A stretch of 61,361 nt of DNA, counting the filler, from Collodictyon triciliatum (lineage: Eukaryota): the NCBI GenBank assembly GCA_043381765.1. It is 4 parts of 4 records of this genome, joined end to end, with 100 filler letters (N's around TTAATTAATTAA, not from the genome) between each part and the next. Parts side by side here need not be neighbours in the genome. Positions count along the whole stretch, not along the records: positions 1 to 26,965 come from JBHJMP010000615.1; 3 more parts are not named here. One strand, given 5' to 3'. The notes under the pieces are model-generated. The model was not told the DNA's origin. It did not search any database and saw nothing but the letters and a program-made list of their open reading frames with translations. A program made the position numbers and the translations under genes. Positions 3,522 to 16,242 of this stretch are shown here, piece by piece. Position 1 is the stretch's first letter, and every line of letters starts with the position of its first letter.

Positions 3522-6500
3522 ATGGTCTCCCTCGAGACTCTACTTGAAAAGGCCGGATTCTTAGCAAAGCAAAAGGTTCAAACATAGAGACAGAAAAAAG
3601 AGAGGCTAGAATAGAGATGAAATATGAATCATCCTGATTATAACAATCATGTCAAAAGGGATTTTCTGCGAGGCTGAAATAATAATTAATGATAATTACA
3701 TTTGATAAACGGATGCATTTTCATAATTCAACAATACCAAATATGTTTGCATTCATGTAGGAGCCTTTCCGTACTGTTTTTGTTAACAAGTCATGTGACA
3801 ATGATTATTTAAAGTAAGGCCCATTTGCGTTTTATAGTTATTGGACATTGTTTTATTATACCATCATAAAATGATATCTTATTCTTGTGTACTATTCCTA
3901 GATATAAATCGAATTTTACTACGACATCCAAATATACTATATTGTCATTTGTCCCGAAAAATCTGTATGAGCAATTTCGGCGTATAGCTAATATATACTT
4001 TCTGGTCATCTCAGTACTGCAGGTAATTTTATTTATCGATTTCTGCATAGTCATATAATTCAAGCAAACAATTAGCTCTCATTAAATTATTTTTTCCTTT
4101 ATTCGATTCAAAGTAGCTCTCATTAAATTATAAAATTTATATCTAGTTGAGTACAAACTTGTCCCCTACTAACAAATATGCTACCATCGGGCCGCTATCA
4201 GTGGTTTTATTTGTCAATATGATGAAAGAAGCTTTTGAAGATTGGGTATATTTCCTTGATAAAGGGTTCCATCAGACATTATGCTCACTTTTACTGCTTT
4301 TCATCTCTGAGTTGATATGTTCAACAAATAATATAATATAATCGAGCATATCATACTTCCAGGGTCGCCATAAGAGTGATGAAAATGTGAACAACCGAAA
4401 ATCAGTAATTGTCGAAAATGCAGTCGAGAAAGATGTTTTATGGAAAGATTTATCCGTTGGTCAGATTTGTCGTGTTGAGCAAGGATCTGAATGTCCAGCT
4501 GACATGGTGATTTTATCGTCCTGTCACGCGCAAGGTCATTGCTATGTAGAAACTGCAAACTTGGATGGGTCAGAATCTTTTCAAAAATAACACAACAATA
4601 CAAAGCAAAGCGAAACAAAACAAAACAAAACAAAACAAAACAAAACAAAACAAAACAAAACAAAACAAAACAAAACAAAACAAAACAAAACAAAACAGCT
4701 CGTTGAAGCAACGATATATGTCTTCATTGTATTGATTGTTCTATCTGTATTTACTAATTTTTTCATCTAATTAGAGAAACCAATCTTAAAGTTATGTACT
4801 CACTTAAAGATACCCAAAAAAACTCATCATGCGAACAGCTTGGTAGTTTGAAGGGTAGATACACCTAATCAGTATTATCATTTTTTAATCAAAAATGAAC
4901 TTTTTTTATGAACAACTACTTTATTCTAATTTTAGTATGAATGGTAATGATAATAACACAATATTTCACGCTAGGGACCATTCGGTGTGAGCATCCCAAC
5001 AGCAGTCTGTACACCTTTACAGGGACCCTTTCATTAAACAATGAGAGGCAACGTACGGGTTGACTATCAATATCCATATGATCGTTTCTGTATTAGATTA
5101 GCAGCCTATTTAATCATTTCATCTTCACGTTTGCTGCAGTTTCGATTGATGTTTCAAATGTGCTCCTAAGAGGAACCGTGCTGCGCAATACCCCATATGT
5201 ATACGGCATCATTATTTTTACGGGACAGGATACAAAAGTCTTTCAAAATTCCCGTGAAGTTCCGTCAAAGCGCAGTCATCTAGAAAAACTGATAAATGCC
5301 ACTCTTGTTTACATATTCATTAGGTTTGACGAATTTTGTTGAATTTTTGTTTTGTGATTGCAACATAATACTCCCAAATAGGCGCAAGACAAAAGGTTTA
5401 TTCAATTAATATTTTTCTTACAGTCTCGGGTTGTTATGTCTCTTCTTTACTCTCGCCCACGTTCTTTGGTATTCCAGAAACCAGTGAGTCGACAAAATAT
5501 TCCCTTGAAAATATTTATCGTATGAATGCAAACCAGATTGACTAGCTATTTGAGTCACTTTCAAAATTTCTGGTTCATTTTTCTATGTAGTTCGGAGCTA
5601 TGGTACTTGAATAATCTGAAAGAGGAAGCTGACGGGAAATCAGGAACTTCGTTCATCACGTTTTTGATTCTGTTCAACAATCTTACTCCCATATCGCTGT
5701 ATGTTTCGATGGAATTCGTCAGGTGAACATATAGTGTATGCATCATGCTTATTTCAAAGCAAAATAGACCAACCCCCCCCCCCCCCCCCCCCAAAGAAAA
5801 AAAAAGACCAAAAAACAAAATTTATGACCTATGGGCGATGAATAGGCTTTATCAAGCAAGATTTATTGACAGCGATATCAGTATGTATTACGAAGAAAAA
5901 GATACTCCTGCCGTTGCCCGAACCTCAAATCTTAATGAGGAACTTGGTCAGATTCAATATGTCTTGTCCGACAAGACAGGAACGTTGACATGTAACGAGA
6001 TGAGATTCTCAAAGTGCTCAGTTGACGGAGTGCTTTATCAGAAGGTTAAACCGATAGAGAAAGAAGGTGAAAGAAGGAGTCGGGCCGTGAGCAATTCATC
6101 GAACCAAAATGTGAGATTCATTTGTACACTATTAATTTCTCTCTTTAGGGTGTGAACAGACTGCTGAATATTTCATAATTATTTGTATGCATCTTCTCCT
6201 TTCTTCCAAAAAAAAAAAAATCCAATGAATAGGGAACCATGATGGTTGTAAAGCCCCGATGTCGACCAAGTGTCGACCAATCTTCAACAGAGGAGTCAAA
6301 GAACGAGACTAACGATTTTGCATCTTCTGCGCAGCCTAAAAATGAGCAAATGGGAACCTTTCTTCTGGTGTGGCTATAAAAATATTGAAATAATGGATTT
6401 GAAGAATCATTATCCTTGATGATTGAAAGGGAATTCCTGCTGAGCTTTTTTTTTTTTAACATAACTGCCAGGCTATGTCTCTGTGCCACACGGCCATTCC

Positions 6501-15500: not shown

Positions 15501-16242
15501 TATCATTTCATCATAGAATTGGAGATGCATACGTCGCTGTTGCTGGTATTCCGATTAATGAAACAGACGAAGTAGATACGGGCAAGTCGTGTCAAAAGAT
15601 GATGGAGTTTGCGATTGGAATGATTCAAGCCGTAAGTACAGAACCACATGGATATTCTTATCTAGATGCAATTATTTTTTTTTATTTATATCCGTCTACG
15701 TCCTCATCTAGATTTCACATATGCAAACGCCTGACGGGCAGCCCGTTCGCATGAGAATTGGGCTCCACTATGGAAAAATTGTCGGCGGTGCGTGTCGATT
15801 CCAATCCAGAAAACTATCCACATAATCACACTGTCGACAAAAATTAAAGGAAACGACAGCAAAAGCGCAGTTACTGATTATTATTTTTTACCACATATTC
15901 CCTGGGGATTGATTAACAGGCGTTATTGGCCGCAAGACTCTGCGGTTTGATATTTGGGGGAGGGACGTCCTGACGGCTGCGTCCATGGAATCCAAAGGGA
16001 CTCCAGGTTCCCTCTTCTCCTATTGAGAAAAAAATTCAGGTTGGAAGTCTTGATGGAATTGTAAATCCTCACATCACGAATTTGTATACAATGCAGGAAA
16101 ACTCCACATGAGCGAGGCGTTCAAACTGCAAGTTGAAAATGAATATGAAATGGACTCGTGTGGCGAGGTCACAAACCCGGGGGGCAAAGTGGTCCGAACG
16201 TTCTTTTACGACCCTAGCAGCAGAAATTCCCACCAAGGATGA
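3522..16242 (+). CDS. P4-ATPase (phospholipid flippase)-guanylyl cyclase fusion, about 50 exons, two internal N gaps
   Basis: Spliced exons give [10 protein letters not shown].., [109 protein letters not shown] and TM segments. The frame is still open entering the gap at 10705. After it come a TM block, cyclase 1 ([27 protein letters not shown]), a second TM block, cyclase 2 ([30 protein letters not shown]) and TGA at 16240-16242. Confidence 0.88.
4611..4696. repeat. Intronic (CAAAA)n
   Basis: Tandem units read directly. Confidence 0.95.
9636..9847. repeat. Intronic (TTA)n
   Basis: Tandem units ending at the acceptor attcag (9850). Confidence 0.95.

Follow-up and report, generated by a model that had tools for sequence, protein, structure and literature searches.

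The window analysed in this study is a stretch of 61,361 nucleotides, filler included, joined from four parts of the genome assembly GCA_043381765.1 (Collodictyon triciliatum). At 3522-16242 on the plus strand it carries what reads as a single intron-rich gene, with approximately 50 visible exons, that would encode, in this order, a P4A flippase (a P4-ATPase), a transmembrane (TM) block, a cyclase domain, a second TM block, and a second cyclase domain. Very probably, 3522-16267 is a single gene that is expressed in a diphylleid related to Diphylleia rotans (supergroup CRuMs), and its product of about 2030 residues is of the P4-ATPase-guanylate cyclase (P4GC) type. The protein would consist of an N-terminal P4A flippase with intact catalytic motifs, a linker of about 200 residues, and a pseudo-heterodimeric class III cyclase made of two units, each with a TM block and a catalytic domain.

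The original prediction, made from the sequence alone, had described a flippase followed on the same strand by TM-cyclase-TM-cyclase, and this layout is borne out by Pfam matches and by ordered tblastn tiling. Pfam families matched seven of ten exon-sized open reading frames (ORFs) on the plus strand (3870-16242): PhoLip_ATPase_N with an E-value of 8.3e-20, PhoLip_ATPase_C with 7.8e-27, E1-E2_ATPase weakly and below the cut-off, and Guanylate_cyc four times in two groups (1.4e-14, 1.3e-11, 8.3e-5, and 6.5e-3, the last below the cut-off). Canonical flippases and fused relatives, used as tblastn queries, tile 3900-10492 and 11553-16215 in order on the plus strand.

For 3900-10495, the splice model joins conserved blocks through whichever GT/GC..AG pair gives the closest fit to the protein P0121 of D. 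rotans, and the model of the cyclase half is built on joints in contigs from X1 and X2, two coded sequencing runs that contain contigs of the gene. The resulting frames are free of stops under the standard code, as had been predicted, over 1095 codons (flippase and start of the linker, to the first gap), 442 codons (first cyclase half, to the second gap), and 326 codons (second cyclase half). The last of these terminates at the TGA at 16240-16242, in agreement with the predicted end of the gene at 16242. Introns had been put at about 100-200 bp; the median of the 47 measured (107 nt) fits this, but their range of 70-361 nt is wider. The gene is AT-rich (GC content 0.30-0.37), and the whole window contains 16 runs of N. 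The second exon weakly resembles the N-terminus of P0121, and the putative start ATG at 3522 is read from the sequence and from this likeness. The interval 6111-6471, modelled as one intron, may conceal a small exon. The parts of the gene, with their evidence in brackets, are:

3522-3575, plus strand: putative first coding exon, with ATG at 3522 and donor GT at 3576, joining in frame with 3761-3813 and 3902-4022 (read from the sequence)
3761-10495, plus strand: P4A flippase module of about 28 exons, with TM10 and the tail to 10495 (Pfam, tblastn, splice model against P0121)
10496-10615, plus strand: intron whose first flippase-frame codon is TGA, 10496-10498 (sequence and contig depth)
10616-10704, plus strand: linker exon ending in the PRVAF motif (10688-10702) and open into the gap (open frame; X1 contig; alignment with the linkers of P0121 and P0281)
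10705-11542: assembly gap of 838 N (N run in the sequence)
11543-14169, plus strand: cyclase half 1, with TM helices, a helical region, the first catalytic domain C1 (12536-13286), a linker, and the start of the second TM block (joints, Pfam)
11547-11648, 11757-11896, 12032-12182, 12265-12342, 12536-12703, 12810-12925, 12997-13081, 13179-13286, 13383-13478, 13579-13635, 13761-13903, 13991-14073, and 14145-14169: exons of cyclase half 1
14170-14474: second assembly gap of 305 N, inside the second TM block (bridged by contigs, with the joint 14169->14529 in X1 and X2)
14529-16242, plus strand: cyclase half 2, with TM helices, the second catalytic domain C2, and the stop TGA at 16240-16242 (contig joints, open frame, Pfam)
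14529-14789, 14888-15001, 15141-15242, 15355-15431, 15517-15631, 15712-15787, 15920-16006, and 16097-16242: exons of cyclase half 2
16242-16267, plus strand: 3' end, with an AATAAA overlapping the stop and a poly(A) site at 16267 (A-runs in X1 and X2; sequence)

The 3' untranslated region is thus very short (about 25 nt), and the poly(A) site lies 20 nt past the AATAAA that overlaps the TGA stop.

The 838-N gap, which is present in the sequence where the original prediction had placed it, lies between the two modules, and the contigs that reach it carry much of the argument for a single gene. The X1 and X2 contigs are read as RNA because of their GT..AG joints, their terminal A-runs, and their adaptor-like starts. 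Thirteen of the fifteen joints listed are GT..AG and the remaining two touch the second N gap; loose A-runs stand behind 16267 in contigs of both runs; and the first letters of some contigs are those of what we take to be a SMART-type template-switch adaptor. Starting at the poly(A) site, an X1 contig of 2554 letters can be followed upstream across both cyclase domains as far as 11548 and then for 81 letters into the gap; when joined to the window, the nearest 30 of these 81 letters leave the frame uninterrupted, and their translation looks like a membrane helix. Another X1 contig (1113 letters, depth 18.5) spans the end of the flippase and continues for at least 255 letters behind 10704, the first 30 of which stay in frame. 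For four bins along this region, the number of covered letters was taken as bin depth divided by contig depth, and the prediction was made from the exons 9851-9940, 10035-10183, 10281-10349, 10432-10495, and 10616-10704:

Bin 1: 121 letters covered, 121 predicted
Bin 2: 117 letters covered, 118 predicted
Bin 3 (10310-10524): 103 letters covered, 104 predicted
Bin 4 (10525-10739): 90 letters covered, 89 predicted

Since the bin depths fit an exon set that includes 10432-10495 and 10616-10704, the TGA at 10496-10498 lies in an intron. The joint 10495->10616 itself is not among the fifteen listed, and splicing at this point is read from the depth arithmetic. The TGA follows a GTGAGC donor and is the only stop between the flippase and the gap; with the intron 10496-10615 removed, the frame passes through the conserved PRVAF motif to the edge of the gap. 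The earlier statement that no stop precedes the gap therefore holds for the spliced frame, whereas the unspliced flippase frame does meet this TGA. On the other side of the gap, the acceptor that had been placed at 11555-11556 has to be given up, as the contig reads through it and continues 81 letters upstream in frame; the exon ends at 11648 and is followed by the intron 11649-11756 (contig arithmetic and homology). It had also been said that no start follows the gap. An in-frame ATG does exist at 11574-11576, but the frame upstream of it stays open.

In the relatives, 109 and 117 residues (327-351 nt) lie between the left and right anchors of the gap. Since the loose ends of the two contigs (at least 255 letters and 81 letters) together make up approximately this whole expected linker, little space is left in which a first gene could have its stop and poly(A) site and a second its promoter and start. 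Judged by the lengths in the D. rotans relatives, the gap should conceal about 109-117 linker codons and the first TM helices of the cyclase. In the window gene, no stop interrupts the spliced frame at either edge of the gap, and contigs enter it from both sides, with none bridging it; in the closest relatives, both modules are found in one polypeptide, complete in D. rotans Trinity ORFs of 2035-2079 aa. From the contigs at both edges and the fused relatives we infer that flippase and cyclase are continuous in the window gene, and this inference is strong because the fused relatives are colinear with both sides of the gap.

These relatives were found with a 55-residue C1 exon, which gave 1059 matches at E<=0.001 among 1.84 billion representative sequences. 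The top match was P0121 (2038 aa), matched at residues 1384-1438. A flippase part stands ahead of the cyclase in 83 of 160 sequences (150 matches listed and ten cluster members), and by manual count the flippase domain PF16212 occurs together with the cyclase domain PF00211 in 110 of the best 120 matches found with the cyclase half of P0121; named holders among these 120 are oomycetes, Cafeteria, Blepharisma, Stentor, Vitrella, piroplasms, and Cystoisospora. The seven closest groups (P0121, P0281, P0282, P0276, P0383, P0385, and P0280) are Trinity ORFs of the EukProt transcriptome of D. rotans (EP00002), and all of these except P0280 are given as complete ORFs of 2035-2079 aa, from at least six Trinity genes. 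The D. rotans ORFs are colinear with the window, on the left through the post-TM10 tail and PRVAF and on the right from the helix upstream of 11547. Identity to the closest of them is 75% over 730 columns of the cyclase and 70% over 1011 columns of the flippase, and oomycetes come next with 30-47%. Our literature search found no paper that describes these fused transcripts of D. rotans.

The linker of the window gene and of the five diphylleid paralogues shown has a common Pro-basic-x-Ala-Phe motif (PRVAF, PREAF, PKLAF, or PRPAF), which sits about where canonical P4A flippases have the GYAFS motif of their tail. It may be a remnant of the autoregulatory tail of the flippase that is now tethered to the cyclase. 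Three further relatives were observed. A fused ORF of 2107 aa in the EukProt data of the euglenid Ploeotia vitrea (P0386/P0286) forms a clade with the environmental sequences P0285, P0289, and P0301 in both trees described below, and it is either another holder outside SAR (stramenopiles, alveolates, and Rhizaria) or a contaminant. P0187 (JGI, 2118 aa, on a contig of 6702 bases) has the reversed order, with the cyclase at 285-956 and the flippase at 1020-1926, and has a long branch in both trees. Finally, in the run X3, from a third coded organism of the same study, 19 of 22 placed records are 90-95% alike and the other three are below 90% (12292-15571); some X3 contigs cover cyclase exons, and a related gene is probably present there.

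In the flippase half, all signature motifs are in place: DGET (4564-4781, split by an intron), DKTGT (5970-5984), TGDK (7997-8008), and GDGGND (8625-8642), with the nucleotide-domain blocks kept. The DKTGT exon has 60-69% identity to ordinary ATP8A-type P4A flippases, in a search restricted to proteins of 150-2000 aa, in which chimeras could not appear and which returned canonical flippases only. Hydrophobic exons precede each of the two catalytic domains of the cyclase half, and both TM blocks are partly concealed by the N gaps. The key residues of the cyclase were read from alignments to the chains of soluble guanylate cyclase (GC) alpha, soluble GC beta, and the atrial natriuretic peptide (ANP) receptor, and are located as follows:

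12554-12574, 12674-12700, and 13061-13205, plus strand: key residues of C1
15186-15212 and 15430-15532, plus strand: both metal aspartates of C2

C1 has Glu and Pro at the two metal-Asp positions, but retains Glu and Cys as specificity residues, as well as Asn and Arg of the transition-state motif. In C2, the two metal-binding aspartates are present and this Asn and Arg are missing. The best alignment of C1 is to the soluble GC and ANP receptor chains, with Glu and Cys at the same places as in GCs. Transmembrane adenylate cyclases carry Lys and Asp at these positions. A mammalian-type membrane adenylate cyclase was ruled out as an identity for this half, since in the window protein the domain roles are swapped and Glu/Cys stand in place of Lys/Asp. 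The adenylate cyclases AC5, AC8, and AC9 differ from the window protein in these same two respects and in having no flippase. They resemble it in that two repeats of a TM block and a class III domain form a pseudo-heterodimer, as described in the accessible part of PMC13466520. In TgATPaseP-GC of Toxoplasma, according to the part of the account available, the roles are inverted, with nucleotide binding in GC1 and the metal aspartates in GC2 (PMC6592433), and the inverted domain roles of the window cyclase match this arrangement.

C1 and C2 would therefore be expected to pair into one active site, to which C2 would contribute the metal aspartates and C1 the purine-specifying Glu and Cys together with the transition-state Asn and Arg. 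Because the residues of both domains read in this way, the predicted product is cyclic GMP (cGMP). The flippase half is predicted to run a normal phosphorylation cycle, probably with a CDC50 subunit, and, if Toxoplasma and Plasmodium are a guide, it would couple the lipid state of the membrane, or lipid transport, to the output of the cyclase. The specificity for GTP, the activity of the flippase, and the coupling of the two halves are putative.

Next to this gene, an LKR/SDH gene lies at 17162-22999 on the plus strand and starts about 900 nt past the poly(A) site of the chimera. Its single match among 118 candidates is D. rotans P0388 (69%), and it is colinear with this 901-aa D. rotans protein. 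Since both the chimera and the neighbouring LKR/SDH have D. rotans as their nearest relative, the host, judged by these sequences, is a relative of D. rotans (diphylleid, CRuMs) and not a ciliate, an apicomplexan, or an oomycete, nor the EukProt strain itself. The earlier suggestion that the host is neither a Paramecium/Tetrahymena-type ciliate nor an apicomplexan is upheld by the nearest relatives of these two genes.

The window protein can be compared with several known systems. The D. rotans transcripts have the same architecture, are 70-75% identical, run colinearly through the junction, and share the PRVAF-type linker motif; however, no transcript is identical (a different species or strain), and they are Trinity ORFs without genomic context. 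The P4GCs of stramenopiles (Saprolegnia diclina XP_008606398.1, Phytophthora infestans, and the bicosoecid Cafeteria) likewise carry two cyclase halves behind a flippase, come closest among the named clades in the trees of both modules, and conserve a motif at the start of the cyclase half. They differ in an identity to P0121 of only 29-40% per half, in being longer in many cases (2100-3200 aa), and in their host group, SAR instead of CRuMs. Ciliate GCs (Paramecium, Tetrahymena, Blepharisma, and Stentor) have the same architecture, about 2000-2100 aa, and a multi-gene family, but their flippase halves are 20-29% identical to that of P0121 and they fall in a separate clade with other alveolates in the cyclase tree. 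Apicomplexan GCs (TgATPaseP-GC, Plasmodium GC alpha/beta) show the same combination of a P4-ATPase with GC1 and GC2 in inverted roles. The flippase halves of alveolates are on long branches, whereas the window flippase keeps every catalytic motif; in some lineages the alveolate halves are described as poorly conserved, in the part of the survey available (PMC13466520). In Toxoplasma, CDC50.1, the partner UGO, and phosphatidic acid are linked to TgATPaseP-GC (PMC6592433, in the part available). Canonical P4A flippases (ATP8A2 and Drs2p type) have all signature motifs in common with the window, and their post-TM10 tail aligns with it, but they end 47-105 residues past TM10, whereas the window frame runs on into the cyclase. 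A stand-alone P4A flippase of the ATP8A/Drs2 type was accordingly rejected as an identity for the first half: the frame does not end past the tail, as the TGA at 10496 falls in an intron and the contig carries the reading on beyond the gap edge.

To place the two modules, separate trees, which the original prediction had proposed as a check, were built from 38 chimeras and the spliced halves of the window gene. The cyclase tree has 45 rows and 813 columns and includes six non-fused cyclases; the flippase tree has 51 rows and 1083 columns and includes 14 canonical flippases, with Cystoisospora and D. rotans DN8025 dropped for their partial flippase. The cyclase tree pairs the window gene with D. 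rotans DN1796i6 as its sister (support 98), inside the paralogue radiation of that organism (95, 100). It follows from this position that the duplications predate the split of the two organisms. The alveolates form one group (94), and the Ploeotia group and the stramenopiles together are the sister (93) of the diphylleid clade (100). In the flippase tree, a node with support 94 unites the stramenopile chimeras with the diphylleid clade and the Ploeotia group, the alveolate halves are on long branches outside, and 37 fused rows stand on one side of a branch (93) that has the 14 canonical flippases on the other. Both halves therefore group with known P4GCs in both trees, and these concordant placements favour a single origin of the fusion.

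Several points weigh against this reading of the gene and its history. No record bridges the 838 N, the X1 contigs of the two halves are separate records, and the RNA nature of the runs is itself a guess. The Trinity ORFs may be chimeric. In this respect, P0121 and P0282 (Trinity gene DN1796, isoforms i6 and i14) are identical over their first 1051 residues, up to the start of TM10, and then differ in tail, linker, and cyclase half (48% identity in the latter), which would mean that the same flippase 5' part continues into either of two cyclase 3' parts, or that Trinity has produced a chimera. A hydropathy scan gave 13-14 strong segments in the relatives at the chosen threshold, a count too crude to weigh for or against the approximately 22 helices given for this architecture in the original prediction. 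The chimeras in the trees were chosen by hand, the IQ-TREE searches were quick, with support from the Shimodaira-Hasegawa-like approximate likelihood ratio test (SH-aLRT) only, the key nodes of 93-94 are under the star threshold, and the flippase tree is without canonical flippases of CRuMs or SAR organisms.

With these points in mind, other explanations can be weighed against one fused diphylleid gene. The 838 N conceal the junction, an in-frame TGA stands at 10496 and an in-frame ATG at 11574, and the X1 contigs of the two halves are separate records, which would suit two neighbouring genes, a stand-alone flippase ending in the gap and a 12-TM cyclase starting in it. This is highly improbable, since the TGA is spliced out and the frame remains open for at least 89 nt and 30 visible loose letters, ahead of the ATG the frame has no stop and its translation there looks like a membrane helix alignable with the relatives, the two loose ends amount to about the full expected linker, at least six fused full-length paralogues exist in D. 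rotans, and the nearest cyclase relatives are almost all fused. There is an equally slight chance that the contig is a stramenopile or alveolate contaminant, which would place the chimera in an already catalogued lineage. Prey or co-cultured eukaryotes are frequent in protist cultures and single-cell data, and oomycetes are the next nearest relatives; on the other hand, the identity is only 30-47% to oomycete chimeras against 70-75% to D. rotans, the window gene is nested in the D. rotans paralogue radiation (support 98 and 95), and the unrelated neighbour LKR/SDH has D. rotans as its only match, colinear over 901 aa.

If a single gene of a diphylleid is accepted, the fusion could still have occurred independently in that lineage, between a flippase and a cyclase gene of the host, and have converged on the architecture seen in SAR. 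The very canonical flippase half (its DKTGT exon is 60-69% identical to ordinary P4A flippases) is in line with such an event, and the test is incomplete since canonical flippases of CRuMs and SAR are missing from the tree. It is nevertheless very unlikely, because the Ploeotia group and the stramenopile chimeras are the partners of the diphylleid clade in both halves (93, 94), a single branch separates all 37 fused flippase rows from the 14 canonical flippases, and the order of parts, the inverted domain roles, and a conserved motif where the cyclase half begins are all shared. As to function, the specificity call depends on two residues only, and recombinant parasite domains are hard to show active, in the accessible part of PMC6592433; the cyclase half might then make cAMP or only regulate, and the gene would not be a functional guanylate cyclase. 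This appears rather unlikely, since Glu and Cys of C1 are placed as in GCs, with the best alignment to soluble GC and ANP receptor chains, and the metal aspartates, Asn, and Arg are all present across the window cyclase.

For the fused diphylleid gene, the sequences favour a fusion that arose once and reached the diphylleids either by old lateral transfer or by descent with many losses. When the 26 SAR-type rows of the cyclase tree were held together against the other 19, the approximately unbiased (AU) test rejected this arrangement (log-likelihood 17.6 lower, p-AU 0.0088), for a group that was named after the tree had been seen and with long outgroup branches in play. At face value, simple common descent fares worse in this test than an old transfer that linked diphylleids with a stramenopile-related lineage. 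It is also conceivable, although we consider it a minor chance, that the fusion dates to an ancestor shared with CRuMs near the root of eukaryotes, and was kept in a few free-living flagellates and lost almost everywhere else; the survivors would then be the multi-gene families of diphylleids and perhaps of the euglenid Ploeotia. Compared with such an ancient origin, it is more likely that this gene, with its approximately 50 exons, was transferred long ago between diphylleids and a lineage related to stramenopiles.

A survey of NCBI nr and several genomes from 2026 reports the chimera only in alveolates and some stramenopiles, in the part of the paper available (PMC13466520), and P4GC has been called alveolate-specific in the accessible part of an earlier account (PMC6592433). 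No paper that links diphylleids or CRuMs to such a cyclase was found in our literature search; Table S1 of the survey may list further taxa. The original prediction that the chimera may extend to another lineage is thus supported as far as the literature searched, including the available part of the survey, goes (PMC13466520). What is new is a P4GC in a supergroup, CRuMs, without an earlier report; the kind of protein itself is already known. A genomic copy in CRuMs together with at least six D. rotans transcripts changes the account of how the fusion arose: the gene must either have crossed between supergroups or be far older. In Toxoplasma and Plasmodium, P4GC acts as the master switch of the cGMP signalling that governs motility, invasion, and egress. 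A free-living host with a fully canonical flippase half could make it easier to test the role of the flippase for the cyclase than the divergent half of the parasites does. The finding is relevant to cGMP signalling in parasites and to the origin of the fusion, and does not represent a new kind of system.

Elsewhere in the window, the LKR/SDH gene and a soluble-type cyclase gene, whose co-occurrence had been noted earlier, were both confirmed. The latter, at 28041-35293 on the minus strand, has a weak Guanylate_cyc match at 35081-35293, an AAA_16 match at 32383-32676, and an exon of 714 codons with no Pfam match, which stands out by its GC content (0.55) in the AT-rich window. An Rfam scan of the whole window gave no matches, hence no rRNA. 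Two open frames, at 211-2049 (plus strand, 613 codons) and 23572-25227 (minus strand, 552 codons), are rich in Ser, Asp, and Glu and match no Pfam family; they may encode lineage-specific disordered proteins. Long microsatellites are present in introns of the flippase half at 4600-4700 and 9640-9850, with a 5-nt unit and a 3-nt ATT-type unit, and similar repeats flank most of the 16 N runs of the window.

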